Below, in pieces: positions 3,878 to 59,290 of a DNA stretch of 64,000 nt. Under the pieces are notes generated by a model. The model worked only from the letters and a program-made list of their open reading frames with translations. It made no database searches and was not told the origin of the DNA. Position 1 is the stretch's first letter; each line of letters begins with the position of its first letter. The position numbers and the translations under genes were made by a program. Origin of the DNA: Cyanidioschyzon merolae (lineage: Eukaryota); the NCBI GenBank assembly GCA_000091205.1, contig AP006499.2. The stretch is one strand, 5' to 3'.

Positions 3878-4501
3878 TGCCCTGGCCTGTACTAAGATGC
3901 CGGATCCGCACCCAGACTGGTCAAGTACAACAGCATCAACGACCTAGTGATGACGCGAAGAGATGTCCGACGATAGAGCTGGCTGTGCCTGCTGCCTGGA
4001 CCCGCCAACATGAGGCAATACGCAGTCATCTCGAACAATGAAATACCATCGTGATTCACCAATTGCTCACAAAATGCATTCCCGATGTATCTATACAGCG
4101 CTTTCTTCTTACTGGACTGCTGAACCGTACGAGAGCAGTGCCTTGGTGCAGACGGAGATCCAATGACCACTCTCGTGGCCATTGATTTTTTTCATCGGAA
4201 TTTGTCAGCATGTGAGTACAGTGCCTCGACTGCGTTCTCAGCGATTCCCACGAACATTCGCGTAAAACGAAGCTGCTGGAGGCCCCGGAGAGCATGAATC
4301 ATTTCCGGATATTGATCGAGGCGCTCAAGTATCGGTGCAGAAGGTGCTTCGGCGCATTGTTGATAGCAAAGTCACACCATAGCGAGCCTCGCTTCCTCCA
4401 TTGCCTCTCCGTTTGGCGCTTGATTCGCTCTGCCCGACGCCATCTCGAGCATTCGTCTCTGTTTCACGCCTTGCTTATGCATCTGTTGGATATGCGATCC
4501 G

Positions 4502-5040
4502 TAAAACAGAAAATGCGCCACGACCATGGCGGGTACGTTTCCATATACCCACGCGCAGACGCGTCCCAGCATTTTTGACTGGCTGCCTGCTATCGGTATC
4601 GGATTATCCAGGTAAACGTGGTGCTTGAGACGCTGCCCCACAAAGTTAGCTCGCGTTAGCTCCTTGGGTATCTCGTCAGTTGCACCGGAAATCGTCTGAT
4701 ACTGATATCGACGTTGAACTCTCGATTCACGAACTCCTTGCGTCCGTTGTCGCTGGTGGAACGCACCAGTGCAACGATCCCCGGAACGCGAGCCCTCTGG
4801 GTCACAACAGTCTCGTCGTCATCCCGTCGCGGAAACCCCGCGTCTCGTCTATCTTTCCTCTTTCTTTTGTCGTATGTTCTTCTGTGCTCGATGATTGACA
4901 AACAGCGGATTTTTCCGGTTTTCCGGCATCTGGCGATCACGGGCATCTAGGATCCCCGACTTTTACGTCCATACCGTCCGCTTGGATTGTTTATTTCTTC
5001 AAAATGAACGCACTTTGAACGCGTCTGCTATAAACCACGA
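4502..5040 (-). mobile_element. Truncated 3' fragment of a TnpB/Fanzor-like (IS200/605 OMEGA-type) element, copy 1
   Basis: Minus-strand ORF 4656..4946 ends ...KEFVNREFNVDISIRR, a degenerate match to the TnpB C-terminal zinc-finger/RuvC-III signature. Flanking DNA aligns with the other copies: the 'aaaacagaaaatgcgccacgaccatggcgggtacgtttccatatacccacgcgcagacgc' tail at 4502-4560 and the 'ttatttcttcaaaatgaacgcac' body start at 4990. Homology is lost after ~5040. Confidence 0.45.
4656..4946 (-). pseudogene. TnpB/Fanzor-like nuclease C-terminal remnant (RuvC-III motif degraded: D>E, AA>VD)
   Basis: The track ORF ends ...EFVNREFNVDISIRR. Compare copy B's CNKFVNRDHNAAVNIRR and the canonical TnpB C(G/N)FVxDRDxNAAxNI. 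Confidence 0.4.
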
Positions 5041-13477: not shown

Positions 13478-14024
13478 CGGCGCCTTGAGCAGTCACAACA
13501 AGCTGTCGCACGCCCGACCCCAGCTCCGACAACGCCTCCGTCTGTCTTTGAACGTGTGCGGCGGACCGGCCAGGACTCGCTAGCCCGCAGCACGTTACAG
13601 AGCCGTGTAAAGGCAGAGCACAACACGCAACGCCCTACTCTAGCCTAGAGTATGAAGTGCAGACGAAACACCGCCACCTTTTCAACCTTGCGCCGCTTTC
13701 TTGCAAGGTTTACCTGCATGCAGGGACACGTCAGTGCCGCCAGCGACAAGGATGCGTGCGCGCGTCGTGACGATGCGTGCGCTGTCACGCCTAATCCCGC
13801 GCCGGGGCCGCTGGCCGCCTTCGAGGCCTCCGGCGCAAATCGAATCGCGCTGAGCGGCTGACGCAGCGCAGCGCTGCGCAGCGCAGGGGTGGGCTTGTGC
13901 GGTGCGCGACTGCGCAAATGCGCTCGTGGAGTGGGGGGTTGTGGAGCTGCGGCCCCGCCGCACTTCGCTGCGTTGCGCGTATCGAGCCGACGTCCCCGTG
14001 CCGTCCCCGCCATGCTCTGGTCAG

Positions 14025-15420
14025 GAAAACGAACACTGTTCCACGGCCATGGAAGGTATCTATACACCCACGCACGGATGCCTGCCAGCCGTTTTGTTTC
14101 GACCGGCCGCCTGCGATCAGTTTTGTTTTATCAGGGGACAGTGCGAGCCTGAGAGACAGCCCAAGAAAGTCGGTTCTCATCAACAGCGCCTATCGTCGGA
14201 TATTGATAGTGGCATTGAAGTCCCGATTCACAAAGTCCATTCGTGCGGTTCCGCTGGTGGAACGCACGAGTACCAGGATTGCGAGAACTCTTGTCCTCAG
14301 TGCCGTTTAGTGCTCTGCTCGCTCTTCGTACTTTTTTATCGCCGAAGCGTTCGGCCGGCTTTGCTCCATCTCGACGTTCTCAAATGTTCAATACAGCGCA
14401 ACCTCTGCACTTCCTATTTTTGAAACTGAAAGCACTCTTTCTTATGCCATTGTTTGAAGACCTTGCCGGAGAGAGAGGCACGAGCGCAAGAAAGACGACA
14501 TATGTCCGAGTGTGTCGCCATGTGCTGAACGCTTCACCAATTCGCCCAGTGCAGCGATTATAACGTTTCACGATAGAAACCACGTCTTCGATTGGCATGA
14601 ACCAGGAAGCGTATGGAGGAATGATACGCGGCTCTACCCCTGATAGAATCGGAAACAGCTCGAATGCAAGGGGAATGTTATAACGCCACCTTATCTAGTA
14701 GAAGGACGTCGTCGGACGTCAGGGAGAGGTCTTCAGTGATTCGATAAAGTGATTTGTGCTGCAGTATGAGCCTTCTCTACGAGCGAGACTTAGGCTGGCA
14801 AATGAATCCACTGCAGATAGAACAGATGATGATGTCGTCGTTCCCTTTGAGCTCGATCTTGCATGCAACCGGTGTCCTGCTCCTCGAATACCCATACACG
14901 CTCCGTCTGTCTCGTTTGAAGCAAGTCACATCGACTGGAAAAAAACAAACCGATGTTCCTCTTCTTCATGTCGATCGCTGCGTTCCAGGAAAGCTGTGGC
15001 AGTTTCGATTTCGATGGAAGATGGCCGTGCGTGAACTAGGACTTTTTTGCGACTGTATATTCGTGTTTCCATGATTACACGAACGAGCTCTTGAGAAACA
15101 GAGACGCCCGCAGTAAATAGAATCGACGCTTTTGTTTTCCGTAAGGTGTTCAACGGGTCGTTTCTACACCATTGACCGCAAGAAGTCTTTCAGAGTATCG
15201 GCATTTGATGCGGAGCGCGTGTACTCTTTTCTATGAACATTCCTCAGTCATCAGGGTACTGTGCAACGACTGACCTGAAGGAGGAATGCCATCCTCCATG
15301 CACTGCTCAGTCAAGTATATATATCCTAAAGGCAATTCGTCTACGATCTATGCTGTACATTGCATCGATCTTTCGATCTCTCGCGCTGTACTGCGAAAAA
15401 AGCATTCGATCACATGCGGC
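14025..15420 (-). mobile_element. Degenerate TnpB/Fanzor-like element, copy A (~1.4 kb): decayed coding body plus conserved 3' non-coding tail
   Basis: Minus-strand translation at 14192-14233 gives MDFVNRDFNATINI (RuvC-III motif). The body at 14460-15420 aligns with copies B and C, with shared blocks 'ttcgcccagtgcagcgattataacgtttcacgatagaaa', 'gtgaactaggac', 'ttgagaaacagagacgcc' and 'gtacattgcatcg'. The tail 'gaaaacgaacactgttccacggccatggaaggtatctatacacccacgcacgg' at 14025-14080 is shared with all copies. Multiple frameshifts. Confidence 0.5.
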
Positions 15421-15648
15421 GATGACGGAATAAAATAGAACTGAACGACCAGAAAAGGCACTTTTCACGCGACTCCGAACTAGCAGGTAAAGCGTGCCGG
15501 TACGCCTGCGCAGCCGATTGGCGCTCGAATTCCTTGCCGCTGCGCAGCACTGCGTCTGAGTAGGTCGTTGTGCTGCAAGGCTGCGGCCTTTCTCGAGGGT
15601 GTGCTGCAGAAACCGCCTTGACGGTGGCTAGGGGCGACAGGACCGTGT

Positions 15649-24435: not shown

Positions 24436-25450
24436 GCGCGCGTCCGATAAAGGTGGAATCCTGAGATGTTCGCTTTGTTCTTGGCTTGCGATTTACGTTA
24501 CGAACGATTCCCAGAGGTACAGCGCCAGCATTCGGATCGCAGCAATAGGGGATGACGGATTCATACGTAGTTTCAGGATGATCGGTCATCGTTTCGAAAT
24601 GGCTCTTTCGAATCTCTTTCAGAGGGAACACGCAACGATACCACACTGAGGATGATCCTCGATGCCCTCGAACAACGGCTCCTAAAATAACCGATCTCAT
24701 CATCCAATGCATACGTACAAGCCTCCACGCCTCTCTTTTCCTCAGGTGCAGCACGATCGAATCACCCATGCCTCAAGGTATCGATCCGTAGGTTATGAGC
24801 GCAATCGTAGGCGCACCAATTTGGACTGCTGCATTACCATGGGGAAACAGTATTCGACATCGCTTCCCTAGGGCTGGCCTGTGACCTCGTTGCGGACGTT
24901 CGCTGAATTTGGCACGTTCAATAGTCGATTCGATTCGATTCGATTCGAATCGAATGACAAATCCGGCTCCATCTGCGGCTATCGACGAAACGGCAATCGA
25001 CTGCAGCACGGGAGGTGCCACGGGGTATGGGCTGCGGGGCTCCCGTGCCTTGCGTTTGCATGGAAATGATCATTGGGTCGGTCTCGGATCGTCCGTTGCG
25101 TTGGCATCCAGCGGATACTGCGTCACTGCGGTGCACGGAAAGCGGGTGCCTGGGTCGATATGTACGGACCTGATCTCCAGCCTGGATTTTCATCCTGGTA
25201 CGTGTTTCTTCCTGATGAACATCGCGTGCCGCAGACCCTCGTCTCGTCGCGAAACAGCGAAGAACAGAGGCTGAATACGATAGAGAAGAAGAAGACAAGC
25301 GAAGCGTAGATCGCAACGACCGCTTGTGCTTGCAATGGATGCACAGCAGCTGGAAGCCGCGTCATTGCGTCGATAACGCTGCTATCAACAATCCTTCGAC
25401 TGCTCAAGATGGAGTTGGTGCAAAAAGGGAGACCAGCAGATTGAAAGCCG
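24436..25450 (+). repeat. Family-X dispersed repeat, direct-repeat copy 1 (~1 kb, no long ORF)
   Basis: About 97% identical to 27750-28765. Starts at 'cgcgtccgataaaggtggaatcctgag'. Contains a (GATTC)n microsatellite at 24925-24955 and the conserved core 'gaagacaagcgaagcgtagatcgcaacgaccg...ccttcgactgctcaagatggag' at 25290-25430. Confidence 0.9.
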
Positions 25451-27749: not shown

Positions 27750-28765
27750 AATACCCGCGTCCGATAAAGGTGGAATCCTGAGATGTTCGCTTTGCTCTTG
27801 GCTTGCGATTTACGTTACGAACGATTCCCAGAGGTACAGCGCCAGCATTCGGATCGCAGCAATAGGGGATGACGGATTCATACGTAGTTTCAGGATGATC
27901 GGTCATCGTTTCGAAATGGCTCTTTCGAATCTCTTTCAGAGGGAACACGCAACGATACCACACTGAGGATGATCCTCGATGACCTCGAATAACGGCTCCT
28001 AAAATAACCGATCTCATCATCCAATGCATACGTACAAGCCTCCACGCCTCTCTTTTCCTCAGGTGCAGCACGATCGAATCACCCATGCCTCAAGGTATCG
28101 ATCCGTAGGTTATGAGCGCAATCGTAGGCGCACCAATTTGGACTGCTGCATTGCCATGGGGAAACAGTATTCGACATCGCTTCCCTAGGGCTGGCCTGCG
28201 ACCTCGTTGCGGACGTTCGCTGAATTTGGCACGTTCAATAGTCGATTCGATTCGATTCGATTCGAATGACAAATCCGGCTCCATCTGCGGCTATCGACGA
28301 AACGGCAATCGACTGCAGCACGGGAGGTGCCACGGGGTATGCGCTGCGGGGCTCCCGTGCCTTGCGTTTGCATGGAAATGATCATTGGGTCGGTCTCGGA
28401 TCGTCCGTTGCGTTGGCATCCAGCGGATACTGCGTCACTGCGGTGCACGGAAAGCGGGTGCCTGGGTCGATATGTACGGACCTGATCTCCAGCCTGGATT
28501 TTCATCCTGGTACGTGTTTCTTCCTAATGAACATCGCGTGCCGCAGACCCTCGTCTCGTCGCGAAACAGCGAAGTACAGAGGCTGAAGACGATAGAGAAG
28601 AAGAAGACAAGCGAAGCGTAGATCGCAACGACCGCTTGTGCTTGCAATGGATGCACAGCAGCTGGAAGCCGCGTCATTTCGTCGATAACGCTGCTATCAA
28701 CAATCCTTCGACTGCTCAAGATGGAGTTGGAGCGAAAAGAGAGACTTGCGTATCAAGAGCCGGCG
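27750..28765 (+). repeat. Family-X dispersed repeat, direct-repeat copy 2
   Basis: Near-identical to 24436-25450 and carries the same ORF artefacts in the track. Differences are a shorter (GATTC)n at 28234-28257 and a more diverged final ~40 bp. Confidence 0.9.
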
Positions 28766-38197: not shown

Positions 38198-38545
38198 TCA
38201 GTTCGAAGATGGTGTACGGCACGGCGTGCCGGTGAACGATATAGCCGAGAATTTCCGGGCCTGGCTTCGCTCCCAGAAGCAGGGTGCGAATGCGAAACGT
38301 GGAAGTGTTTCCAGGAGATACTGCGAGATGCTGGCGCTTATGGAGAGATAGAAACAGGGGCTTTCCGGGTCAAAGGGAGCAATCGTTCCGTTTTTGTGCA
38401 TATGGACATGAAGTACGTGCAGGAATACTATTTTCGGAGAGGCTTTTATGACCTGAATAGCAAGGTTTTAAGGGTGGCTGGTCGCTTTTCTTCTGGAAAC
38501 CGCTGCCATGATTCATGGAGACCAAGGGATACCCGACGCTTGAGT

Positions 38546-39927
38546 CGACACCCATGAAGAACGACAATGTCATGGGTGCGCTCCGCGAGCTCGTACGCAC
38601 ACGCTCAAGTTCTGGTCTCTTGCGAATGCGATCAAGTCTCTGGGGTTTATCTCAGCGACTGCTTCCTGTTCCTGCCGCGTACTTCCGGCTTCACAGGCAC
38701 CGTTCTCTTCTGTCGCTCCAGATTCGGTGTCAGCAGTCGAAGGGTGTTGACGGCAGTGTGCGAGTCCCAACTGTTTCTCGGCCTCGGGCTGGTGTCAACG
38801 AATGCAATGCGCACTCGCGGTCGCTGCGATCTACGCATCACTTGCCATGTTCGTCTTCTTATTGTGCAGCCTCAGTGCACGTCCTTCGCAGCAGTAACGC
38901 TTGACTCTGGGCAGGTGTTTCCGTACCGTCCATCGCACCGTTTTCTCCGAGTCCTGCCTTCTGGGTCACCAGCGCTAGTCGCATCGCTCGCTACAAGCGC
39001 TGGACGGGTCCAGGCGGTTACCTCTGATACCAACCTGCATTGGCGCGCCCGCCGCTGCACCCTACGCTCATGAGCTTCACCTAGAGTGACCAGCTCGGCG
39101 AATTCGCTTGCTTCTGCGTACGAAAGCGAATGCATACGCTGTTGCGTTCGGTCAAGGACTGTGGAGCGCGATGTTGTCCATGATGAAACAAGCACCGCAA
39201 GGAATACCCTGCGGGCGAAACGAGTCTACGAATTCTGATCCGTCCACGCGCCTTTCGTGCAACGCGTCGACACCAGCTCGACTGGAAGCGCTCGCTACGA
39301 TGACTCGAGTCCGAGTCCGGGTCCGAGTCCGAGACCCCTCAACAGGTAAACGGAAGCGTCGGGCACCCCCGGGGTCGTATCCCGTGAGCGATACCGTGCT
39401 GCTGTGGAGTCTCGTTGCGTCGATAGCCACGGAGGAAGGATGATTTGTCTTCCAAGCGGAACTCAATATTGGACATGACATCGTCTGCGGGCCGTCGGCA
39501 GGAGCTTGTGATCAAGCCGTCATGGCGTATCGTAGAGTGTTTTGCATCGTTCCTCTGGCGTTGCGGACTGCTGCGCCCACGAGTTGCCATGAAGCAGCTG
39601 AATCGTGAGCTTGAAGCACGCGTGACTGGAGCGTGCGTCTCGTCATGCGAGGTGAAGAGCCGAGGCATGCTCGTTTGAACCGGATAAAGAAATCTGTTAT
39701 TTTGCATACGCTAATTCGAGGAGGTCGCGACTCATCTTGATTCTGGTGTCGCAGCGAATGCAACCGGTTGAGCGTCGACGGAGCCGCACCGGAACGTTCA
39801 CCGAGAATCCTGAAACTACTGGTGAATCTGGAAACCCCTATTGGGTGAATCTGAGTGTCGAGGTTGCAAATCTGGAAAACGGTTGGAAAAAATCGAAAGG
39901 CAGGAGCAGTCGACTAGTGCAGTATTC
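38546..39927 (-). repeat. Family-X repeat, inverted-repeat arm L (~1.38 kb)
   Basis: Reverse complement of 43613-45002. Identical 168-aa and 77-aa ORF artefacts appear on opposite strands in the track (38567..39073+ = 44475..44981-; 39445..39678+ = 43857..44090-). Contains a (GAGTCC)n hexamer repeat at 39306-39333. Confidence 0.9.
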
Positions 39928-41963
39928 TATTTTCGTTGGGCACTGGTTGAGACAGCAGCTGCAAGTTGCGAAAGAATGCGCGGTGCCAGACATCTTGGAA
40001 TGTAGTGAAATCCTCAACAGTAATTGCGGAAGAAGCGCTCTATTGCTTGGATATACACGTGAGTGACGGCCTTGCCGCTCGGGTTCAGGTCGTAGGTCAA
40101 CGGTTGCATACAGTCTCTACAGTGAAGCATTAGAGCAACTTCGCGAAGAGCATTGACGGTGTATGGTTCAGTTTTTTTTTGCGTACAGAGAGGAAATGGA
40201 ATAAAGTTGACAGATATGATATAGCCCGACGCAATATCAATCTGCACGTACTTCGTAACTACGAATTGCGAGTCGAGCAACAAGGCTCGTTTTCAACTGT
40301 TCAACATAGGTGAAGAGCAATGGTTCATTGTGGGTGTGGAAACGGGCTTGAAGAGTATCATGCCCGTTGTTTTGCCTCTGAGTCACGGATACGGGGCCAA
40401 AGGCTTACACTGAACAAGACGAGGTTGCCCAGCTTTGCAGGGCTCTGTACTTTCGAGAGTCGTACATGACACACGGTACGCGACGTACCAACAGGTAACA
40501 GGATACTGTTAGAATAATCTCGATGCTCTGAGCACTGCACCCGGCAGACGAGATGCTTTGTGCGCTTCATTCGAAGGTTGCATCAGCGTCCGAGAATCCT
40601 GATGCAGGCGAACATTGGCAGGATTGCATGAAACCACGCTGGGGGCGCCAACGGTTTCGGTTGTACGGTGGCGAGGACGGTGCATACGTCAACTTCATCA
40701 ATGCGCTGGAGAAGGCGAAGACCGATACGTCGCATCGTTTGGCGGTTGAATTCTGTGGCACTGGACGTGCTGTAGAGCACACACGCTGCACTCCTGCACC
40801 ATCGAAGAGAGTGGACTGCTGGCGGAGGAAGCGATTCGTCACGTTTCCCATCGATTAGTTCAGGACAATATACATGCATCACAAGCACAGGCGTGCGCTC
40901 AGACTGGTCCAGAAGAAGATAGTGAAACAGAGCCGGATACACAAGGTGATGTGCGGTAAGCTAGCCGAACGTCAGATAGCGAGATAATCGAAGTTGTGAG
41001 GTTTGCTGTGGTTTGTTTCCGACCGCATCCATGTGCGCGGAAGCGCCTTCCGCACCGAGCCTTGAACGCCTCGTTCAACAAGCGGAAATATCCTGTACTT
41101 TCGGATCGTCCAGCGCTGCTCTGTCGAGCGAATATTCGAGTGAACCGTTTAGAACTCAGTGTGAGCATTGTGCTCAAACGCTGACGACTTCCAATGAAAA
41201 ACATAGCAAACGCCAAGAGGGAGGGCATCGCATTCCTGCCTCGAACAAGGCACTGGGATGGTACGGGAACGCGATCCGGCATGGCTTCAGTGCCTTACGT
41301 ATACATAGGGAGAGAGTTTCTCGGGCTTTTGTTCGACGATACTGGTATTCTATTATCCGACGTTACTGGGCAAGTCCAAATTCAAAATGCAACATTTCAT
41401 GGCAACGCTACAGCACGTGCCAGCGTCAGATCAACAGCGAATCGCCTCGGCAACGGAGACCAACCCCTGGGTAGTTGTATCATAAGCGCAAACGCTCCTC
41501 GCTAACGTACAGTGCCGAGAGCAGGTACTAGGATTCACCCATTGTGGTAGATCATCTCCCTTGGACTCCAAATTCGCGATACCGGAACCCATTGCATACG
41601 TACGTGCAGAAAAAGCAGATGATTTCCCTAGCACCAGGACATTTTTTCATGATTCATATATTCCAATATGCGACCTTTCTGCGGCACAGCGGAAAGTAGC
41701 TCAAGTTTCTCGCTCTTGTGAGAACGCAGTAAAGCTGATCGGTATGTAATGCGATTTTTTGCAATCCTGTAAATCGACCAAGAACTTGGGGTTGTCTTCC
41801 ATCGCAACGGTTGGCACCCTGTGCGAGAAACGATGCCGCCGCCTCCGTCGACGTCACTGGAATGCAACCTCGGGTCTTCAAACGTGCGTTTCGGGTCGCC
41901 AAACGCGAAGCCGTGTTCACAAAGACTACCAAGGCACTCGAACATCAGTGCAGCATCCGCGAA

Positions 41964-43310
41964 TCACTGTGCGTCGCGTCTTTCAAAGGCCGCTATGAAA
42001 TACGCAGAACGTGACGAGAAACCTGTAACGGGAGCTGTGGCTATTTCTGCAGTGCTTGCGCCTATCCTTGGACCAGAGACTCCAAGCGGGGTTCGTGTCT
42101 GCGCTGCCTGCGCGGGAATACGAACCGCTGCAGAGCAGCCAGCCAAACCACGATGCGGCCACGCGGGGAAGACAGTGTCCAAGCGCCAACGACTTGCGAT
42201 GAACGGATCGGCGAGCAGCGCCTCGACAACTTTTTCGTTTTCCTCAATCAGTACGCTACACGTGGAGTAGACAACCCGCCGGACTCGAGGAAAAGCCACC
42301 AGCGCATGCCGAAGTAGCTGAATCTGAACGGCAGCCAGTCGACCGATTCTGGACCAGTTATAGCGCTCCCCGACGGGCCGGTAACGCACTAAACCAGACC
42401 CTGAGCACGACGGATCGACTAGGATCGCTGACGCTTGCGCAAGAGCGCCATCATGAGCATCATCGGATACCACTGTTCGAAAGTCCTTCAGATGCATGCG
42501 AATGCTCTGGGTGAATCCTGCGCTGCGAACACGCGATACCATCGCCCGATAACGTTCGGCATCTCTTTCGAATGCATAAACCATGCCACTCTGTTGCAGC
42601 AGATTGGCAAGAAACATGCTTTTATTCCCAGGTGCTGCACATGCATCGATAAGGTGCCAGCCGCGTTGTGGTTGGAGCGCGAGCGCAGCCAGGCACGAAC
42701 CTCTGTCCTGCACGATGAGTAGCCCGCGCTGCACCCACTCATGGCTGAGGAATGCCCCTAGGTCTCCATGGAAACACCAGAAGAGGTCCGGGTATGCAAG
42801 ATCGCGTTCAACGCATCCAGGGAAGGCGCGTTCGACTGCCGCAGGATCCAAACCGCCAAGGACTTGCGGTCGAAACCAGAAAAAGCGATAATCCTCTGTT
42901 TGTTGAAAAGATGGCGGCTCATCGGTGTTCGTCCTGGACCCGCCACAGGACGTTGTTGATGCGCTGAGCAATTTTTTGAGCTTACGAGCGATGAACCCTC
43001 CAGCGCGAAGCAAGTTACCGCGGCCAAAACAGCGTTCGTAGACCACAACTCGAGCTAGCCAGTGGTTCGTGGGACGTCTCAACCAGTCGTGCCACCAGCG
43101 CCGTTCATCTTTTGGTTGCTGCTGGATCGCACTCTGCAGTATCCGCTCGAGTTCGTGGCTCCAGCGGTGTGTCTCGGTTGCCAAGGCGTACACGCGTGGC
43201 CACTCGGTACCCAGACGCGTTCGTTCGCGGTACAGAAACGTGCGCAGCGAAGCGGATGACGTTTCCGTCAGCGTTAAAACCTGCGCAACGCTTCTATAGA
43301 CGGGGTGCAT
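41964..43310 (-). CDS. NOL1/NOP2/Sun-family RNA cytosine-C5 methyltransferase (NSUN5/Rcm1-like size)
   Basis: SAM-binding motif I (LIDACAAPGNKS), catalytic motif IV (ILVDPSCSGSG, cf. DAPCSGTG) and motif VI (VYSTCSV) are present. The gene lies in the spacer between the inverted family-X arms. Confidence 0.8.
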   Translation of the reverse strand: MHPVYRSVAQVLTLTETSSASLRTFLYRERTRLGTEWPRVYALATETHRWSHELERILQSAIQQQPKDERRWWHDWLRRPTNHWLARVVVYERCFGRGNLLRAGGFIARKLKKLLSASTTSCGGSRTNTDEPPSFQQTEDYRFFWFRPQVLGGLDPAAVERAFPGCVERDLAYPDLFWCFHGDLGAFLSHEWVQRGLLIVQDRGSCLAALALQPQRGWHLIDACAAPGNKSMFLANLLQQSGMVYAFERDAERYRAMVSRVRSAGFTQSIRMHLKDFRTVVSDDAHDGALAQASAILVDPSCSGSGLVRYRPVGERYNWSRIGRLAAVQIQLLRHALVAFPRVRRVVYSTCSVLIEENEKVVEALLADPFIASRWRLDTVFPAWPHRGLAGCSAAVRIPAQAAQTRTPLGVSGPRIGASTAEIATAPVTGFSSRSAYFIAAFERRDAQ

Positions 43311-43612
43311 GAACCGTTCATCACTCGGGTAAGTGTAGTGACTGCCCCCAGGCGGTGCTCAACGTGCCCGACTCGACTCGCACACTAGACAAGTTTTGCA
43401 CCCGCGGCGCGCTGCAGACAGCGGGCTTGTGTACTCGGCACACTGCGGATACCCGAGTGGAAAAGGAAGATGCTCGACAGAACACTCCTATCAGAGAGCG
43501 ATTGGGTTGTAGGATTGCTTTGTCGGTGTAGCGGTCGACGAGGAAGATAATGCAAATAGGTACGGATATGCCACTGCGCGATGCTACACTAGTGTCAGAT
43601 CAACATGGAATA

Positions 43613-45002
43613 CTACACTAGTCGACTGCTCCTGCCTTTCGATTTTTTCCAACCGTTTTCCAGATTTGCAACCTCGACGTTCAGATTCAACCAATAGGGG
43701 TTTCCAGATTCACCAGTAGTTTCAGGATTCTCGGTGAACGTTCCGGTGCGGCTCCGTCGACGCTCAACCGGTTGCATTCGCTGCGACACCAGAATCAAGA
43801 TGAGTCGCGACCTCCTCGAATTAGCGTATGCAAAATAACAGATTTCTTTATCCGGTTCAAACGAGCATGCCTCGGCTCTTCACCTCGCATGACGAGACGC
43901 ACGCTCCAGTCACGCGTGCTTCAAGCTCACGATTCAGCTGCTTCATGGCAACTCGTGGGCGCAGCAGTCCGCAACGCCAGAGGAACGATGCAAAACACTC
44001 TACGATACGCCATGACGGCTTGATCACAAGCTCCTGCCGACGGCCCGCAGACGATGTCATGTCCAATATTGAGTTCCGCTTGGAAGACAAATCATCCTTC
44101 CTCCGTGGCTATCGACGCAACGAGACTCCACAGCAGCACGGTTTCGCTCACGGGATACGACCCCGGGGGTGCCCGACGCTTCCGTTTACCTGTTGAGGGG
44201 TCTCGGACTCGGTCTCGGTCTCGGACTCGGTCTCGGACTCGAGTCATCGTAGCGAGCGCTTCCAGTCGAGCTGGTGTCGACGCGTTGCACGAAAGGCGCG
44301 TGGACGGATCAGAATTCGTAGACTCGTTTCGCCCGCAGGGTATTCCTTGCGGTGCTTGTTTCATCATGGACAACATCGCGCTCCACAAGTCCTTGACCGA
44401 ACGCAACAGCGTATGCATTCGCTTTCGTACGCAGAAGCAAGCGAATTCGCCGAGCTGGTCACTCTAGGTGAAGCTCATGAGCGTAGGGTGCAGCGGCGGG
44501 CGCGCCAATGCAGGTTGGTATCAGAGGTCACCGCCTGGACCCGTCCAGCGCTTGTAGCGAGCGATGCGACTAGCGCTGGTGACCCAGAAGGCAGGACTCG
44601 GAGAAAACGGTGCGATGGACGGTACGGAAACACCTGCCCAGAGTCAAGCGTTACTGCTGCGAAGGACGTGCACTGAGGCTGCACAATAAGAAGACGAACA
44701 TGGCAAGTGATGCGTAGATCGCAGCGACCGCGAGTGCGCATTGCATTCGTTGACACCAGCCCGAGGCCGAGAAACAGTTGGGACTCGCACACTGCCGTCA
44801 ACACCCTTCGACTGCTGACACCGAATCTGGAGCGACAGAAGAGAACGGTGCCTGTGAAGCCGGAAGTACGCGGCAGGAACAGGAAGCAGTCGCTGAGATA
44901 AACCCCAGAGACTTGATCGCATTCGCAAGAGACCAGAACTTGAGCGTGTGCGTACGAGCTCGCGGAGCGCACCCATGACATTGTCGTTCTTCATGGGTGT
45001 CG
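43613..45002 (+). repeat. Family-X repeat, inverted-repeat arm R (~1.39 kb)
   Basis: Partner of 38546-39927. Carries the family core 'gaagacgaacatggcaagtgatgcgtagatcgcagcgaccg...cccttcgactgctgacaccgaatctggag' at 44694-44850 and an expanded (GAGACC/GAGTCC)n at 44199-44250. Confidence 0.9.
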
Positions 45003-45159
45003 ACAATCGTTGTTTCGATAATCATGTACAAATTGTATACTTAGCCCGATAATATCCCATTTATGTCCATCACCATCTCGATGACGCACTGTCGTCTCTA
45101 CCGGAATCCAATCCGTGTTGACACGACGTTTGTGAACACCCCCGGTTCCTTCCTGAAGC

Positions 45160-47299: not shown

Positions 47300-48770
47300 A
47301 AGCATAAATTGTAAAACCAGATGATCTGATATATACGGCCAGAAAAGACAAAAAAACATTTCACGACCACGGAGGGTATGTATATGTACCCAGGCGCAGG
47401 CGCCTGCCAGTCTTTTTTGGCCGTCCGCCTGCTATCGGGTTCAGCTTCACCCTGTACACGTCGAGCCGGAGAGGCTGCCTTATAAACTTGGATCGCGTCA
47501 GCTCCGCGGATCTCGTCTTCAGCACCGCTCATCGTCTGATATTAACAGCAGCGTTGTGATCCCGGTTCACGAACTTGTTGCATGCAGTGCTGGTAGTGGG
47601 GAACACCAATGCAGGGATTGCCGGAACTTGCGCCCTCCGTGGTAATACATTCTCGACATCGTCCCGTCGAGCGAGTACCTTTTCTCGTGTATCTCCACTG
47701 TTCTTCTTCATCACTTGCTCTTCTTCGCATGGTGGTCTTAGAGAAGAGTATTTTTTCGTTTTTTTTTCGCTGCAGGCGACGATAATCGCCCTCCAGGATT
47801 CTCGACTTCCATGTCCATAACTTTCCCGTAGATTTTTTATTTCTTCATATGAACGCACTTCTTGATGCTCTTAGACAAGGGCCATCGCGGAGTGAGAAGG
47901 ACCTGCGCAAGAAAGAAGAATTGTGCCCGTGGGCTAAACGTACGGAGAACGCTTCGGCAATTCGCCCAGTGGAGCGATCATGACGTTCCACCCTGGAAAG
48001 TACTCCTTTGATGGTGCTTAACCACCGAGCGTACGTAGGAATGAGAAGCAGCTCTATCCCGGTAGAACTGGCATAAAGATCGAATGCAAATGAATGGTGA
48101 AATGCCACGTTGTCGAACAGAAGAATGTCGGCGGAGCTGCAAGGGAAAAGTCTTCAATGATTCAACAAATTGGGTGCTTTTGTTGCAAGAGCCTTCTCAA
48201 CGAGCGAAACCGTGGCCGGCAAATGAATCCTCTGCAACTAGAAGCTGAAATGATGATATGATCTTTCTCTTGCATGTCTTTTCTAATTACAACGAGCGCC
48301 CTGCTCGGCGAATACCCATATACGCTCCGACCGTTTCGTCTGAAGGACTTTTCAACGATTGAAAAAAACAAACCGATGTCTCTGTGATGCATACCGACCG
48401 CAGCGTTCCAGGAACGCTATCGTTGCGTGAACTAGGACGCTCGTTTTGGCGACTGTATTCCAGGGCTTTCAACGCGACACGAACAAGCTGTTGAGAAACA
48501 GCGACACCCGCGATGGCTACGATCGTCGCTTTTGCTTTTCATACGGCAATCAACGAGTCGCTCTCTACCATGGACTGCAAGAACGCTTCGACAATACCAG
48601 TTTTTGGCGCGGAACGCATCTACTTGTTTCTTTCACTGTTCCTCAACCATCTGAGTACAGTTGGATGACTGAACTGAATGAGGAATACAGTCCTCCTTGT
48701 ACTGTTCAGTACATAATATATATCCTACAGACGATTCGTCTACGATCTAACCAGTACATTGCGTCGTGAT
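47300..48770 (-). mobile_element. Degenerate TnpB/Fanzor-like element, copy B (~1.45 kb; best-preserved C-terminus)
   Basis: Minus ORF 47529..47858 ends ...KKYSSLRPPCEEEQ...FPTTSTACNKFVNRDHNAAVNIRR. ISDra2-type TnpB has ...YPSSKTCSSCGH...CEACGFVLDRDLNAAINI, i.e. a CxxC zinc finger plus RuvC-III. The body at 47830-48770 aligns with copies A and C. A conserved tail lies at 47300-47530. Confidence 0.6.
47529..47858 (-). pseudogene. TnpB/Fanzor-like nuclease C-terminal fragment (zinc finger plus RuvC-III); upstream body is frameshifted
   Basis: CNKFVNRDHNAAVNIRR terminates the ORF. Upstream minus ORFs 47845..48108 and 48162..48392 are in other frames, and the shared peptide block RxTGRI(A/G)EAFS also occurs in copy A. 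Confidence 0.6.
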
Positions 48771-48993
48771 TTCAGTGCCCCGCTTACTGAACGCGGCATC
48801 GAGCGTGGAACGAATCCTAGTTGAAGGACTTTGAGGAAACCTCAATGCTCGTGTGCCCGCGGGCCGCCGAGCGACACGACCGGGATGCGCGCACGCGCCT
48901 GCGCCACCGGGGCATCGTGCAACGTCCCCCGGAGGCCTGACGGGGTGAAAGCGCCTCACTGGCGAATCGGAGCGCTGTAGTGCGGCTTAGGCT

Positions 48994-54130: not shown

Positions 54131-56251
54131 ATGGCGCAAAACACTGGACAAGAGACTTATGAGTTCCAGGCGGAGATCAATCAGCTCATGTCGCTGATTG
54201 TCAACGCGCTGTACTCGAGTCGCGACGTGGCGCTGCGAGAGCTGATTAGCAACGCCTCTGATGCGCTGGATAAACTTCGTTACTTATCTCTGTCGGACAA
54301 GTCAGTCTTGGATGCCGATGAGAAGATGGAAATCTACATCAAAGCAGATAAAGAGGCGAAGACACTGGAGGTGCGCGACACTGGTATCGGGATGACCAAG
54401 TCAGACCTCGTGACAAACCTCGGCACGATTGCCAAGTCTGGCACGAAGAGCTTCATCGAGGCGCTCCAGGCCGGAGCGGACGTTTCGCTCATCGGGCAGT
54501 TCGGTGTCGGGTTCTTGTCCGCTTTCCTTATCGCAGATGTCGTGGAAGTGCGCACCAAGCATAATGATGATGCGGGCTACATCTGGGAGTCCTCAGCCGG
54601 TGGTACGTTCACTATTCGACCGGATCCTGAACCGCTCAAGCGAGGAACTGCCGTGATTTTGCACTTGAAGGATGATCAGTTGGAGTACCTGGAAGAGCGT
54701 CGTATTAAGGAAATCGTCAACCGACATTCTTCCTTCATTCAGTATCCTATTTTCTTGTACAAGGAGGTGGAGAAGGAGGTGGATGCGGATGAAGACGACG
54801 AGAAAATGGAGGATGTTGACAAAGCTAAGGAAGAGGGTGATGTCGAAGAGATCAAAGAGGAAGAGGAGAAGAAGGACAAGAAGAAGAAAAAGAAGGTGAA
54901 GACGGTCGAGTGGGTGCAGCTGAACAAGACCAAAGCGATCTGGATGCGGCGTCCAGAGGAGGTTTCTCGAGAAGACTACAACGCATTCTACAAGGCGATT
55001 ACCAACGACTGGGAGGACCCGCTCGCAATCAAGCACTTCTCCGTGGAGGGCCAAGTCGAGTTTACAGCGTTGCTGTTCTGCCCACGCCGAGCACCCTTCG
55101 ATTTATTCGAGCCTCGAAAGAAGCTCAACAATATTAAGCTGTACGTTCGGCGCGTCTTTATCATGGATAACTGCGAGGATCTCATCCCAGAGTACCTGAA
55201 CTTTGTCAAGGGCGTCGTCGACTCCGAAGACCTGCCGCTCAATATTTCCCGCGAAATGCTCCAGCAGAACAAGATCTTGAAGGTCATGAAGAAGAATATC
55301 GTGAAGAAATGCCTTGAAATGTTCAGTGACCTCGCGGAAAACAAGGAAGATTTTAAGACTTTCTATGAGCAGTTCAGCAAGAACATCAAGCTTGGTATCC
55401 ATGAGGACACTGCGAACCGCTCGAAACTAGCAGAGCTGTTGCGGTTCTACTCGACCAAGTCTCCGGACGAGTACACTTCGTTGAAAGAATACGTATCTCG
55501 CATGAAGGAGGGCCAGAAAGCCATCTACTACATCACAGGTGAAAGCAAGAAGGCGGTTGAGAACTCGCCTTTCCTGGAGAAGCTGAAGAGGCGCGGTTAC
55601 GAGGTCTTGTTCATGACAGAGCCTATCGACGAGTACTGTGTACAGGCCCTGCGAGAATACGACGGTAAGAAGCTTGTCTGCGCCACGAAGGAAGGTCTCC
55701 AGCTCGAGGAAGACGAGGAAGAAAAGAAGCGGCGTGAAGAGGAGGCTGCGCGCTTCGCGAATCTGCTCAAAGTGATGAAGGATATTCTAGGAGACCGTGT
55801 CGAGAAGGTCATTCTCAGTGAACGGCTCGCAGACTCGCCATGCATTTTGGTAACGAGTGAGTTCGGTTGGTCCGCCAACATGGAGCGTATCATGAAGGCG
55901 CAAGCGCTTCGAGATAGCACCATGTCCATGTACATGAGCGCCAAGAAGATCATGGAAGTGAACCCGAGCAACCCCATCATTCGTGAGCTGCGAGACCGAG
56001 TCGAAGCGGATCCCTCGGACAAGACAGTCAAGGACCTAGTCAATTTGCTATACGACACAGCGCTACTCGCGAGTGGTTTCTCCCTCGATGAGCCGAATAC
56101 ATTCTCGAGCCGCATCCACCGCATGATCAAGCTAGGTCTCAGCATCGACGAAGACGAGGAAGAGGAAACACCAGGTGTCACCATGGAGAATGGTGCAGTC
56201 GAGTCAGGCACTGGCGATGCCGTCGAGAGTGCCATGGAGGAAGTCGACTGA
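54131..56251 (+). CDS. HSP90: Heat shock protein 90, cytosolic type (C-terminal MEEVD)
   Basis: Signature blocks [19 protein letters not shown]-like ([24 protein letters not shown]), LGTIAKSGT and [13 protein letters not shown] are present, with a charged linker and a C-terminal MEEVD TPR-binding motif. Confidence 0.95.
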
Positions 56252-56342: not shown

Positions 56343-56467
56343 AGTGGCGAGTTCGAGCATTGGCACTGGGAAAAGCAAACACGCTTGGTCAGCGACTGCA
56401 TGAGCGCAACTGAGAACGTGGTTTTTCCAGTTTAACGTCGTCGAAATGGCACACACGCACACGGTCA

Positions 56468-57840
56468 GTAAAACGAAAACGTTTCACAACCATGGAAAGG
56501 AAAAATATCTACCCACGCGCGGACGCCTCCCAGACCTTTTTTGACAGGCCGACTTGTATCGGTTTGAGCTTCTCCTCGTAAACCTCTTGCCTAAGCGACT
56601 GCTCCATAAAATGAGGTTGCGTCAGCTCGGCGAGTCCCGTCTTGAGCACCGCACATCGTCTGATATTGATGGCGGCATTGAAGTCTCGATTCACGAACTC
56701 CATGTATATACTGACACTGGTGGAACTCACCAGCGCAAGGATTGCTCAAAGTCGTGCGCGCTGGGCCCTTTGGTGCTCTGTCAGCTCTCCGTGATTTTCT
56801 AGCTCCAAAGCGCTCCGCTGCATTTTCTCCATCTTGACATTTTCGAGTGTACACCAAAGATCGTACTTTTATTTTTTTTTAAATGAACGCACTTCTTTAT
56901 GGCCTTCGGTAAGGGCTCTCCCGGGGGAGGAAGCTTTTGCGGAAGCAAGACGTCATGTGCCCCGGTGAGTCACCGTATGCTGGACGCCTCAGCGATTCGC
57001 CCAGTAGAGCAATTATAACGTTTCACGATAGAAAACACTCCTTCAGTGAGGTTGAACTACGGCGAGTACGGAGGACCGAAAAGCAGCTCTGCCCGGATAG
57101 CATTGGTAAAGCTCGAACGCAAACGGAATGATGAAATGCGACGTTGTCCAGTTGAAGGATGTCGGCAGACGCCACGGGAAGAGTCATCAATGATTCAACA
57201 AAGTGGGTGCTTTTCTTGTATGAGCCGTCTCTACGAGCGAAACTGAGGTCGTAAAATGAAACCACGGCACCTAGAAGCTGCGATGATATCGTTCTCGTTC
57301 TCTTCGAGTTCGATTGTAGATAGAACGGGCTCCATTCAACTCAAGTACCCGTGTGCGCCTCAACCGTTTCGTGTGAAGCAATTCTAGTCGTCTGAAACAA
57401 ACCAAATTTCCTCTGCTTCATACCGATTGCGACGCTCCAGGGAACTGTTTTTGCGATTTCGGTGGATAATGCCCATGCGTGAACTAGGACTCTGTTTCTG
57501 CGACGGTATCCCAGTGCATTCAGGACCAAACGAACAAGATGTTGAGAAACAGAGACGCCAGTGGTGGCTAGTATCATCGCTTTTGCTTCCCGGAAGATGA
57601 TTCACGGGTCGTTTTGAACCACTGACCGCAAACAGTCTCTGATGGTACCAATTTTTGGTGCGGTGCGCATCTGCTTGTTTCTTTCAGTGTTCCTCAACCA
57701 TCTGAGTACTGTGGTATGATCGAGCAAAAGAAGGAATGCAGTGCTCCTAGCACTGATTCGTAAAGAATACATCCTAGAGACAAGTCGTCTCCGAGCTATA
57801 CAATACATTGCATCGCGATTTCCATTTCCTAATATACACC
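56468..57840 (-). mobile_element. Degenerate TnpB/Fanzor-like element, copy C (~1.37 kb), inserted ~215 bp downstream of Hsp90
   Basis: Minus ORF 56509..56730 contains MEFVNRDFNAAINIRR. The body at 56875-57840 aligns with copies A and B, with minus-strand translation ...VKRYNCSTGRIAEAS. The tail 'aaaacgaaaacgtttcacaaccatggaaaggaaaaatatctacccacgcgcggacgcctcccagacctttttt' is at 56468-56540. Confidence 0.55.
56509..56730 (-). pseudogene. TnpB/Fanzor-like nuclease C-terminal fragment (RuvC-III motif; zinc-finger cysteines lost)
   Basis: EFVNRDFNAAINIRR. Confidence 0.5.
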
Positions 57841-58289
57841 GCATCGAGGCTGGAGCAAATCTGAGCTGAAAGCCCAGAGGGGCTCTGCGCGAACCTGCCG
57901 CTTGCCCATTGGATCCGTTCGTTCCCGCGGCGGTGCTCAGCGCTCCTGCGCCGCATGGTATTCGGCATGCTGGCGCCTGACACACTAAGTGCGACGTGGC
58001 TGTTGGGGAGTCGACGCCACTCTCAGCGCAGGGCCTTGAACAAGCACCAGGTCGTAGAGAGTCTGCCCGCCTTGAAGCAGTGCGCCACAGACTCATTATT
58101 TCAGATCCAAATGGGACACTGGACTGAGCGCTCTGCTCTTGTCTTTCCATTTATTTTCCGAACTTTGTTTGAAGAAGTACAGCATCAACATTCGAGCTGC
58201 AGCGATCAGGGCTTTCGGACTCGTACGTGCGTTTCGGATCCTCAGTCGTGGCCTCGGAGTGGCTCATTCGACGCTTTGGCGCTGGTATT

Positions 58290-59290
58290 CGATACGTGAC
58301 CCGAATTAGGACGATTCGCGACGCCCGCGACCATGGGTTCCTAACATCATCCAAGTCATTATTTAATTCATACGTAGAAGCCTCCACGCGTCCCCGTTCC
58401 TTATGAATATCATGGACATAGCACGCATTCTTCAAGATTTTGTTTCTTCTGTTTCAAGGCAACGCTTGGGCAGAACGCTTCGCGCCGCTGAATGGACGAG
58501 ACGAAAACGCTCAACGTCGTCACTTGAGGGCCTGGTTCAAGAGTTCATCCTTAAAGTCCGCAGAGCTTTGGGCGGTCAAATAATCGATTCCGTTCGAAAC
58601 GCAGATCCCTCTCTCATTGTGATCATCGACGAAACGTGATGGCATACCAGCTAGAAACCTTTCACGGAACAAACTCCCGGAAACGCCCAGCGCTTCCGTT
58701 TCCATGTTAAAGGGTTTCGGACTCGGACCTGAGTCATCGCAGGGATCGCGTCTAGACGAGAATGCATCAGTGCGATGAACGTAAGGAACGTAAACAGACC
58801 GAAATGTTTAGACTCGTTCTCCAGCCTGGTTCCTCCTCACTGTACTTGTTTCAGCATGCGTGACATCGCGTTCCCGCACATGCTCCGAAGAATGGTACAG
58901 CGCGCACATGCGCAGCGCACAGCGTATTCACGGAAGGAATCGTCTAGAGGAAGCTAGTGATCGTAAGGTACTGCTACGCACGCGGAAACAGAGGAGGAGG
59001 CGGAGCGCATCCGGGCGAGCCTGCATGCACCATGGGGCGGCGCTCGTAGGCGACATTGTGGTGGCATATCGGGGCATTTGAAGACACGCTCTTGTGACCG
59101 CTGCGAAGCGCGCACCGCGACTATATGCAGCGAAGATGAATATGGCAAGCGAAGCGTAGATCACAACTGTTGCCTACACACGACATGCATAACCACAACG
59201 ACCGGAAACTGTGAAATCGGGACTTGCACCTCGCCATCAACATCCTTCGGCTGCTGATAACGGAGCTAGAGGAAACAGAGAGAGACCGGT
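58290..59290 (+). repeat. Diverged solo copy of family-X repeat
   Basis: Shares 'catcatccaag..at.....tacgtagaagcctccacgcg' (58333-58390) with the direct-repeat copies (24693-24735). Shares 'cgcttccgtttccatgttaaagggtttcggactcgg..ctgagtcatcg' (58693-58740) with IR arm R (44175-44265). Shares the core 'gaagatgaatatggcaagcgaagcgtagatcaca...catccttcgactgctgataacggag' (59135-59270) with all copies. Confidence 0.6.

Follow-up and report, generated by a model that had tools for sequence, protein, structure and literature searches.

Four copies of a conserved tail in the DNA of Cyanidioschyzon merolae as the probable right ends of dead Fanzor1 transposon relics

The window analysed here, the whole 64,000-nucleotide stretch of Cyanidioschyzon merolae DNA (contig AP006499.2), contains four copies of a conserved block beside the remains of a TnpB-like nuclease gene. 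The original prediction took this block for a non-coding module of a bacterial-type element, the scaffold of an omega-RNA. The question is what the block encodes, and whether it works as an RNA. We propose, with a probability of roughly 0.85, that the conserved "tail" is the right end of four dead, internally deleted Fanzor1 transposon relics of the CMe-1 family in the nuclear DNA of C. merolae. The block would be the right-hand ~240 bp of a DNA transposon relic, and its four copies may be seen as neutrally decaying members of one subfamily, named W-type here. It lies at the position of an omega-RNA, but present working as a guide RNA is a candidate role at most, with a plausible origin in an active ancestor by analogy with known systems. 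The main value of the analysis is a correction: an apparent non-coding RNA module of a bacterial-type TnpB becomes a C-terminal coding end and a terminal repeat. The transposon family has been known in C. merolae since 2007/2013, and the element is an ordinary relic with a slightly improved annotation. The Hsp90 gene of the window (54131-56251) matches C. merolae 10D BAM82113.1 with 100% identity.

A homologous block follows, on the minus strand, the FVNRDFNAAINIRR-type RuvC-III motif in all four copies, with a mean column identity of 71% in the alignment. A profile of the last 85 alignment columns has exactly four matches in the window (E 8e-20 to 1e-16), all on the minus strand, and the copies have sharp ends at 4495, 14018, 47337-47340 and 56462. 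The predicted conservation in all four copies is thus borne out. The terminus ...GTTTTACTGACCG is shared by the window copies and nine further copies from metagenome contigs, which together form the 13 copies used in the W-type comparisons. Contigs such as L004, with an identity of 97.8%, indicate variation between strains. The flanks beyond it are unrelated, and their divergence starts immediately past ...CTGACCG. The abrupt end of homology that had been described therefore holds across 13 copies, while the boundary placed at 56468 lies 6 bases inside the true end at ~56462. The statement that every remnant carries the tail is too broad: two more Fanzor-like remnants, at 40616-41163 (plus strand) and 5099-6417 (minus strand), have no recognisable end block. 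The former was compared with both end types and is too decayed for assignment.

It is important to compare these copies with CMe-1A (Bao and Jurka 2013, Mobile DNA 4:12, PMC3627910), which has approximately 150 copies and a 3169-bp consensus encoding a 734-residue Fanzor1 protein. CMe-1A corresponds to the "253-copy interspersed repeat with a WSV486-like ORF" of Nozaki et al. 2007, who reported 253 transcribed copies of 3.2 kb each (PMC3627910, PMC1955436). The CMe-1 family was left unclassified, "without TIRs", by Bao and Jurka (PMC3627910). The four window copies match the CMe-1 protein with tblastn E-values of 3e-12 to 4e-28, and by blastn they map to CMe-1A bases 2739/2839 to ~3100 and also to bases 790-969. 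The identity per copy is 67-68% at the nucleotide level for bases 2739-3100 and 43-54% for the C-terminus of the protein. Both come from the same genome and share the RuvC-III motif and the C-terminal peptide RP.ELTR. The RuvC-III "RD" motif (..NRD.NAA.NI..) appears as FVNRDFNAAINIRR in copies C and A, as NRDHNAAVNIRR in copy B and in the mutated form NREFNVDISIRR in copy 1. The right ends differ, however: CMe-1A finishes with a 62-base 3' UTR ending ...TTCGAAAGGCG, whereas in the window copies the reading frame continues into a terminus that repeats the left end in inverted orientation. In addition, a DDE_3 transposase remnant replaces the 5' 900 bp of CMe-1A. The window copies represent a diverged subfamily.

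The window copies keep only CMe-1 residues ~611/640 to 729. RuvC-I and RuvC-II are deleted, and ~1.8 kb of the Fanzor gene has been lost through two different deletions. They are remnants and not genes, with no complete D..E..RD triad plus [TS][TS]xx-zinc-finger. The left boundary of the window copies is imprecisely defined, no left end or target-site duplication having been found for them; the CMe-1A left end and the right end of the intact (A-type) elements, used as queries in blastn-short and nhmmer, gave no match within the window. The TnpB/Fanzor status of CMe-1 rests on the published motif analysis (PMC3627910) and a weak Pfam match to Cas12f1-like_TNB (E=0.034 over 17 residues of a raw three-frame translation), since the full CMe-1 protein gave no Pfam match, and no PDB match by phmmer.

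Approximately 210 of the 233 bases of the block belong to the Fanzor1 C-terminal reading frame. The block consists of the last ~57 codons and a ~22-base terminal repeat (56462-56483) located past the ancestral stop. The very strings that had been quoted as non-coding can be translated on the minus strand: gcgtcagctc...ctgatatt gives NIRRCAVLKT..AELT, and ctgctatcgg...acccacgcgcagacgc gives PIAGGRSKKTGRRLRVG. The consensus of the 13 W-type copies is an open frame without a stop, NIRRCAVLKTRPEELTRANFVGQPLRLEVYKEKLKPIAGGRSKKTGRRLRVGRYIYPPWS*, and is 71% identical and 87% similar to the C-terminal peptide of CMe-1, in which 53 codons follow NIRR. The dN/dS value between the two subfamily consensuses is 0.18 (pS 0.52), and in the tail of 44 intact-type copies the diversity pi3 is greater than pi1 and pi2. 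The description as non-coding does not survive these results, and the coding part would have been under protein-level selection in the master element.

The terminal stop differs by copy. The ancestral TGA occurs in the context GTG TGA AAC, while in other copies the frame is closed by the TGA within the terminal CTGAC; the protein P0096 terminates as ...YPPWL*. In copy C the frame is shifted by one inserted base near 56534-56536 and runs to a premature stop at 56509-56511. An internal deletion of ~1.8 kb has placed the fragment of this copy immediately next to the Fanzor 5' leader, seen in repeat family D16. A small reading frame made of the Fanzor start and the last ~95 codons is open in the family consensus.

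A Tc1/mariner-type DDE_3 transposase gene, decayed in every copy, is located upstream of the Fanzor fragment. Its region is common to 8 copies and belongs to the same repeated unit of ~1.4 kb. The raw translated frame matches DDE_3 with E=7e-4 in Pfam and the consensus reconstruction with E=4.8e-20 (72 bits, cut-off 28.6); raw three-frame translations gave only weak Pfam matches, and the match became clear only after consensus building. The reconstruction also has a weak match to HTH_Tnp_Tc3_2 (E=0.006) and 30% identity to the PUl-1 Mariner transposase (E=7e-12). Pfam found no match in the ORFs upstream of the tails in the fetched loci. The assignment to IS200/IS605 has to be abandoned: the host is eukaryotic, the family is Fanzor1 CMe-1, and the element has a DDE_3-type transposase and no TnpA. 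One subfamily in this way ties the CMe-1 Fanzor1 to a Tc1/mariner-type transposase, which is a gain in annotation. The order on the minus strand would be the DDE transposase, the Fanzor1 leader with or without its first codons, a large deletion, the last 90-120 Fanzor1 codons including RuvC-III, and the ~22-base terminus, with the stop codon presumably placed inside the terminal repeat ahead of this terminus. The right end is probably also the recognition site of the DDE transposase. The latter is only a candidate mobiliser, because the window copies revealed neither left end nor target-site duplication. The coordinates are collected in Table 1.

Table 1. Features of the right end of copy C, its surroundings and the tails of the three other copies.
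Feature	Position	Strand	Basis or remark
RuvC-III motif codons FVNRDFNAAINIRR, copy C	56656..56697	-	ORF 56509-56730; aligns to CMe-1 residues 671-684
Ancestral Fanzor1 C-terminal coding after RuvC-III (CAVLKT..AELT..KLKPI..SKK..RRLRVG.Y.YPPW[SL])	56487..56655	-	tblastn, CMe-1 residues 611-722, E=4e-28
TGA, the ancestral stop codon, within the terminal repeat	56484..56486	-	translations
Subterminal hairpin H1 (GGGTA-variable loop-TACCC)	56496..56514	-	85% of cells paired; changes mostly G-U compatible
Terminal palindrome ATGGTTGTGAAACG-TTTT-CGTTTTAC(T)GACCGT, reaching the element end	56461..56493	-	80% of cells paired, 13 copies
Stretch AAAACGTTTCACAACCATGGA, matching in inverted orientation the published left end of CMe-1A (bases 7-30)	56476..56496	+	local alignment
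Host flank beyond the right end, 3' region of the Hsp90 gene; would-be guide source; differs between copies	56442..56461	-	
Rest of the Fanzor1 C-terminal fragment (CMe-1 residues ~611-671)	56698..56862	-	blastn: CMe-1A bases 2739-3088 = 56862-56515
Decayed Tc1/mariner (IS630-type) DDE_3 transposase gene	56965..57880	-	Pfam
Copy B tail, RuvC-III codons to right end	47337..47573	-	frame ...GRRLRLGTYTYPPWS* still readable after one stop
Copy A tail, 23-base internal deletion	14018..14234	-	
Copy 1 tail, RuvC-III mutated to NREFNV, frame shifted	4495..4733	-	

The tail had been described as conserved at least as well as the coding body, and a function at the RNA level had been deduced from this. 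The pairwise identity among 8 copies is 0.69-0.73 in the tail and 0.65-0.75 in the rest of the element, and neither the excess nor the deduction is sustained. The tail shows uniform decay without excess constraint. The codon-position diversity of the relics is flat (0.31/0.31/0.35), and the bases past the stop are the least conserved part (pi 0.42). The resemblance among the copies would reflect descent from one master element, with drift since insertion at the same rate as in the rest of the element. In the 44 intact-type copies, third-position diversity is 0.215 in the tail against 0.267 upstream (p=0.046), and the ratio of pi3 to pi1,2 drops from 2.0 to 1.3 in the tail. This slightly lower value leaves room for a weak overlapping constraint other than on the protein. 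In the 3' UTR of the intact type, diversity ranges from 0.00 to 0.30, and mostly does not exceed 0.20, in the stems GGCG/CGCC and in the block CACTACTGTACAC, and the loop between the stems is hypervariable; a separate alignment was used here, since the fast alignment is unreliable over the last 80 bases.

The terminus of the W-type copies corresponds to the CMe-1A left end in inverted orientation, with a local alignment score of 27 compared with 11.9 +/- 2.1 for shuffles, none of 5000 reaching 27. This relation is one between subfamilies, because the published CMe-1A consensus has its own right end and was reported without inverted repeats; no terminal inverted repeats were detected when the copies were searched one by one. 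The recognition of the right end as an inverted copy of the left end of the family adds to the annotation. The terminus can form a subterminal and a terminal hairpin. Across the 13 copies 81% of cells are paired in these hairpins, compared with 39-53% in slid controls, but this percentage is surpassed by only 9 of 500 shuffles and is not decisive by the calibration of the tool itself. Hairpin H1 is intact in copies 1, A and B and degenerate in copy C.

Folding of the tail as RNA was also assessed. RNAalifold found no shared fold for the 13 W-type copies (-3.6 kcal/mol, covariation term +0.22) and no consensus fold for 51 intact-type (A-type) sequences (-2.6 kcal/mol, 3 pairs). In the named hairpins 6 compensatory pairs were observed against 5.1 expected from shuffles, so compensatory change is essentially absent beyond chance; 37 of 500 shuffles attain the hairpin covariation score of 0.306, compared with 0.275 for shuffles. 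Taken as a whole, the 239-nt tail has no better fold than shuffled sequences (z=-0.25). For the last 76 nt the z-value is -3.1 in copy C and -0.2 to -0.5 in the other three copies. In Rfam (E<=1) the only match was one to an lncRNA, below threshold and due to chance. What remains of the predicted omega-RNA scaffold is its position and its run to a sharp transposon end, while the excess conservation, the shared fold and the covariation are lost.

The position deserves attention. The block extends from the 3' end of the nuclease gene to the right end of the transposon, as an omega-RNA would. The unrelated flanks are not diagnostic of a guide, since they are expected for any transposon insertion. 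In an active ancestor, transcripts through the right end were probably processed into a Fanzor omega-RNA, by analogy with published systems (Saito 2023, Jiang 2023). The ancestral scaffold would extend over the final codons and the terminal repeat, with the flanking DNA supplying the guide. With a Fanzor frame that continues into this repeat, almost the whole of any omega-RNA from the lineage would coincide with coding sequence, as is the case for bacterial TnpB.

The relics could accordingly be only the dead imprint of such a template, the last 80-200 bases of the master element having served as the scaffold. This reading is compatible with the preferred one, and we give it a little less than an even chance. 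A scaffold overlaps the 3' coding end in ISDra2 TnpB and in GtFz1, where the omega-RNA covers 17 C-terminal codons, and it includes the 3' inverted repeat in SpuFz1, from which the omega-RNA is transcribed (Saito 2023, Nature 620:660, PMC10432273). The palindromic terminal segment, the lower third-position diversity in the intact-type tail and the low-diversity stems of the intact-type 3' UTR with their hypervariable loop all point in the same direction. However, the two subfamilies are close to saturation at synonymous sites, their right ends are unrelated in spite of the 71% identical C-terminal peptides, and the intact-type sequences have no consensus fold. The ISDra2 element shares with the window copies a RuvC-III near the 3' end and a scaffold that would overlap the last codons and end at the right end with a hairpin. 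It is nevertheless bacterial and moved as single-stranded DNA by the Y1 (HUH) TnpA, while the element in C. merolae, a eukaryote, lacks TnpA and is linked to a DDE transposase.

It is possible, with the odds somewhat against it, that the terminal ~45 bases were a recognition end for the transposase, as an inverted repeat, a DNA hairpin or both, and never acted as RNA. The significant inverted similarity to the left end of the family and the DDE_3 transposase gene within the same unit favor this, and Fanzor1 genes are documented within Mariner elements with inverted repeats, namely PUl-1 and PUl-4 of Pythium ultimum (PMC3627910). As in these elements, the transposase precedes Fanzor1 on one strand, and the ends may likewise be related as inverted repeats. 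PUl-1, however, has clear 24-bp inverted repeats, TA duplications and an intact Fanzor gene, while in the window copies such repeats and duplications were not found and Fanzor is deleted. Against a role in DNA only, the window copies gave no matching left end, and several stem changes are G-U compatible on the sense strand only, although transitions produce this by chance too. In addition, the characterized Fanzor1 systems use such an inverted repeat as the omega-RNA template as well, so that the two roles are not exclusive.

It is unlikely that the four tails are kept at present as "ghost" guide loci, used in trans by an intact Fanzor1 encoded elsewhere. In its favor, the position is like that of known Fanzor and TnpB omega-RNAs with a sharp end followed by unrelated flanks, the hairpins are paired in 13 copies well above the slid controls, the repeat family was reported as transcribed (Nozaki 2007, PMC1955436), and ORF-less "ghost" loci with working omega-RNAs have been described (Saito 2023, PMC10432273). 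Like SpuFz1 and GtFz1, the family has a Fanzor1 gene followed by the putative right inverted repeat of the element, and its non-autonomous copies retain this end. In those systems the omega-RNA is read from the right end and takes its guide from the flank, as a putative omega-RNA of the window elements would. In S. punctatus the RNA was sequenced, the guiding of cleavage was demonstrated and the ghost ends are strongly conserved, while the window copies are ~70% identical without excess conservation or covariation. The tail is conserved no better than the adjoining dead transposase gene, the bases past the stop are the least conserved, and neither the folding energies, the compensatory pairs, the shuffled pairing percentages nor Rfam speak for a functional RNA.

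It is still less probable that the ~1.4-kb relics form a dispersed "ghost" guide library, whose omega-RNAs would be loaded in trans by a few intact CMe-1 Fanzor1 proteins, with a contribution of the small frame. The guide of copy C would then be the Hsp90 3' region TGTGCGTGTGTGCCATTTCG. If true, a red alga would have an RNA-guided system aimed at intergenic stretches of its own genome. Genetic work is feasible in C. merolae, and the exact ends make a small-RNA test straightforward. Hardly any credence can be given to retention of the block by the host as a terminator or 3'-UTR signal for neighboring genes: gene ends do lie close by in this very compact genome (copy C is 210 bases past the Hsp90 stop codon in convergent orientation), but the orientation to the neighbor gene is inconsistent across 13 loci, both convergent and tandem, and there is no excess conservation.

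Covarying terminal hairpins of the A-type (TTCGA-CTT-TCGAA and TTTTC-TTTT-GAAA) were considered and rejected, as their pairing registers differ. An origin of the last 45 bases from a separate TE-N2/CMe-1A 5' end by nested insertion was likewise considered; this was rejected since the similarity stops after ~35 bases and all 13 copies have an identical junction.

The block at the right end of each repeat copy (56468-56700 in the copy cC) is the C-terminal coding sequence of a Fanzor1 gene together with a transposon right end, held in dead, internally deleted and neutrally drifting copies. The window contains four such copies in direct orientation, c1, cA, cB and cC, all on the minus strand, and the alignment of their ends (A1, mean column identity 71%) shows an abrupt loss of homology. 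A profile built from the last 85 alignment columns has exactly four matches in the window (E 8e-20 to 1e-16), ending at 4495, 14018, 47340 and 56462. Nine further copies with the same tail (W-type, the subfamily of the window copies) were fetched to give a set of 13. All of them share the end ...GCGTCTGCGCGT-GGGTA(loop)TACCC-TCCATGGTCGTGAAACGTTTTCGTTTTACTGACCG and diverge directly after it, as expected from the sharp element end in the original prediction.

However, the tail had been described as non-coding, and it is in fact mostly coding, with only about 22 non-coding bases. In the published CMe-1 protein, the 53 codons after NIRR are CAVLEKRPPELTRENFVGQPLKVELYEKKLEAVVGGRSKKTGRRLHVSWRRFV and a stop, and the strings quoted in the prediction translate on the minus strand as NIRRCAVLKT..AELT and PIAGGRSKKTGRRLRVG. 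A protein search distinguishes two tail types, the published one (A-type) and the W-type of the window copies, with a peptide that ends in ...GRRLRVG.Y.YPPW[SL] before the stop. The 13-copy W-type consensus is an uninterrupted frame, NIRRCAVLKTRPEELTRANFVGQPLRLEVYKEKLKPIAGGRSKKTGRRLRVGRYIYPPWS followed by a stop, which aligns to CMe-1 without gaps at 71% identity and 87% similarity; dN/dS between the two consensus sequences is 0.18 (pS 0.52, pN 0.14). In 44 intact-type copies, pi3 of the tail exceeds pi1 and pi2, the same as in the remaining gene. The terminal repeat contains the stop codon, which is either the TGA of GTGAAAC (56484-56486 in cC) or, where the frame differs, that of the terminal CTGAC. 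A 1-base insertion in cC creates a premature stop at 56509.

The genomic setting identifies the host. The MEEVD ending of the protein encoded next to cC is the signature of eukaryotic cytosolic Hsp90, and an exact look-up found this protein 100% identical to C. merolae 10D BAM82113.1 / XP_005538149.1. Contigs from hot-spring metagenomes are 99.4-99.6% identical to the window. It follows that the window is nuclear DNA of a red alga and that any TnpB homologue it carries is a Fanzor. The block is just downstream of the Hsp90 reading frame, and the cC relic ends about 210 bases past its stop codon, in convergent orientation. One metagenome contig (L004) shares 97.8% identity with the window across Hsp90 and the relic; from its position 3840 (window 57776) it departs inside the transposase remnant and runs on into a GST gene, which reflects either a strain-level rearrangement at the relic or an assembly chimera.

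The family itself is already known, and the additions made here are at the level of annotation. CMe-1A, the Fanzor1 family of C. merolae, comprises about 150 copies that share about 80% identity with a 3169-bp consensus encoding a protein of 734 residues; its description reports neither inverted repeats nor a target duplication and assigns it to no class (Bao & Jurka 2013, PMC3627910). A 3.2-kb repeat with a WSV486-like reading frame was reported in 253 transcribed copies, about 5% of the genome (Nozaki 2007, PMC1955436). When the published consensus is mapped onto the window, cC and cA keep its bases ~2739-3090, while cB and c1 keep ~2839-3100 and part of the leader with the first codons (bases 790/869-969). 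Each copy has therefore lost internal sequence, through one of two different deletions.

Upstream of the Fanzor fragment, cA, cB, cC and five external copies have about 950 bases in common, which defines a repeated unit some 1.4-1.5 kb long; neither a left end nor a target duplication was definable for it. The shared bases contain decayed transposase genes (see table). The reconstructed transposase consensus matches Pfam DDE_3 (E=4.8e-20, 72 bits) and, weakly, helix-turn-helix models, and shares 30% identity (E=7e-12) with the transposase of PUl-1, a Mariner element of Pythium likewise carrying Fanzor1. This suggests that the "unclassified" CMe-1 family, or at least its W-type subfamily, is a mariner-type Fanzor1 carrier like PUl-1. 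The proposed assignment to IS200/IS605 has to be replaced by the eukaryotic CMe-1 family with its DDE_3 transposase remnant.

Features of the window, with coordinates and strand
Feature	Position	Strand	Remarks
Hsp90 gene, cytosolic, intron-less	54131-56251	+	706-aa ORF; C-terminus MEEVD
Decayed Tc1/mariner-type DDE_3 transposase genes	56965-57880, 47870-48850, 14400-15450	-	directly upstream of Fanzor fragments
Fifth Fanzor1 remnant, more decayed	40616-41163	+	CMe-1 residues 524-697, 33-42% identity
Very divergent Fanzor-like stretch	5099-6417	-	25-29% identity to CMe-1 residues 166-616
Large inverted repeat	38544-39947 and 43588-45004		~1.4 kb per arm, 98-100% complementary
Direct duplication	24439-25432 and 27756-28744		99% identical; spacing 3312 bases
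Older dispersed copies of a 66-170-base unit	44672-44844, 59114-59283; 38704-38876, 34-89		first two related, last two inverted

Neither the fifth remnant nor the very divergent stretch has a recognisable end (a right end in the former). The divergent stretch lies immediately upstream of c1 and may represent an older element, either nested or neighbouring. The large inverted repeat, a recent inverted duplication, encloses 3.6-5.2 kb with a reading frame at 41964-43310 (-), and the fifth remnant is located between its arms. The direct duplication and the dispersed unit, covered by repeat families D2, D3, D11, D14 and I5-I8, are another repeat family.

The conservation of the tail had been taken as a sign of RNA-level function, but pairwise identity along the unit is 0.69-0.73 in the tail versus 0.65-0.75 in the transposase remnant, and diversity past the stop codon is the highest in the block (0.42). 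Diversity by codon position in the 13 relics is flat (0.31/0.31/0.35, p=0.09), which indicates neutral decay. Consensus folding by RNAalifold returned -3.6 kcal/mol with a covariation term of +0.22 for the W-type; the 51 A-type sequences gave -2.6 kcal/mol and 3 pairs. Two hairpins were defined, the subterminal GGGTA/TACCC stem and the terminal palindrome. In these, 81% of cells are paired versus 39-53% with slid partners, so the palindromes are real ancestral features. However, their shuffled controls are 79% paired (9 of 500 shuffles reached 81%), double changes number 6 against 5.1 expected, and the covariation score is 0.306 versus 0.275 (37 of 500 shuffles scored as high). Under the calibration of the tool itself, these values are no evidence of selection. 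The whole 239-nt tail of cC folds with z=-0.25, and its last 76 nt with z=-3.1 versus -0.2 to -0.5 in the other three copies; Rfam has no match. Any present-day RNA function of the four copies is improbable.

Two weak hints for RNA are both found in intact A-type copies: the tail has lower third-position diversity than the sequence upstream of it (0.215 vs 0.267, p=0.046), and the 3' UTR combines well-conserved blocks (GGCG/CGCC stems, CACTACTGTACAC) with a hypervariable loop in a mosaic. The predicted position holds, as the block is at the element end, where the guide RNA is located in SpuFz1, GtFz1 and ISDra2. By analogy with these systems, the right end of the active ancestor may have templated an omega-RNA that would overlap the coding sequence almost completely, and the same end was probably recognized by the transposase. 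We put such an ancestral omega-RNA role at roughly 0.45, slightly short of an even chance. Exact termini and a tractable alga would make a small-RNA test easy.

In the consensus of the 1.4-kb unit (Wcons) and in some copies (proteins P0016, P0017), the Fanzor start and first ~20 codons are in frame with the last ~95 across the internal deletion, giving an open "mini" reading frame of 120-135 residues. It is probably without function, because diversity among copies looks neutral.

The W-type subfamily is absent from the accounts of the family cited here (Bao & Jurka 2013; Nozaki 2007); its features are the linkage to a mariner-type transposase, the reading frame extending into the terminal repeat, and a terminus that is an inverted left end. 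When reverse-complemented, the W-type end is similar to the left end published for CMe-1A, AAAACGTTT(A)CA(TT/C)GACCATGGA. Their local alignment scores 27, while shuffles give 11.9 +/- 2.1 (0 of 5000 reached 27) and control orientations and the A-type right end give 10-16. This makes the W-type right end an inverted copy of the family left end. The published A-type right end differs, with a 62-base 3' UTR ending ...TTCGAAAGGCG, though its boundary is likewise sharp. One contig (L098) joins an A-type coding tail to a W-type end; ends have therefore been exchanged within the family.

Past the A-type end ...GAAAGGCG in L005-L084, the first 10-12 flank bases are G/T-rich and semi-conserved (TTGTTGGTG, GGTGGTG, TTTGGTG), which may mean a true end further out or a target-site preference. 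Copies of the CMe-1A left end with 78-82% identity occur at L087-L089:290-484 (-) and L035:2150-2299, a few kb from W-type or A-type tails and in inverted orientation; they could aid the definition of complete elements.
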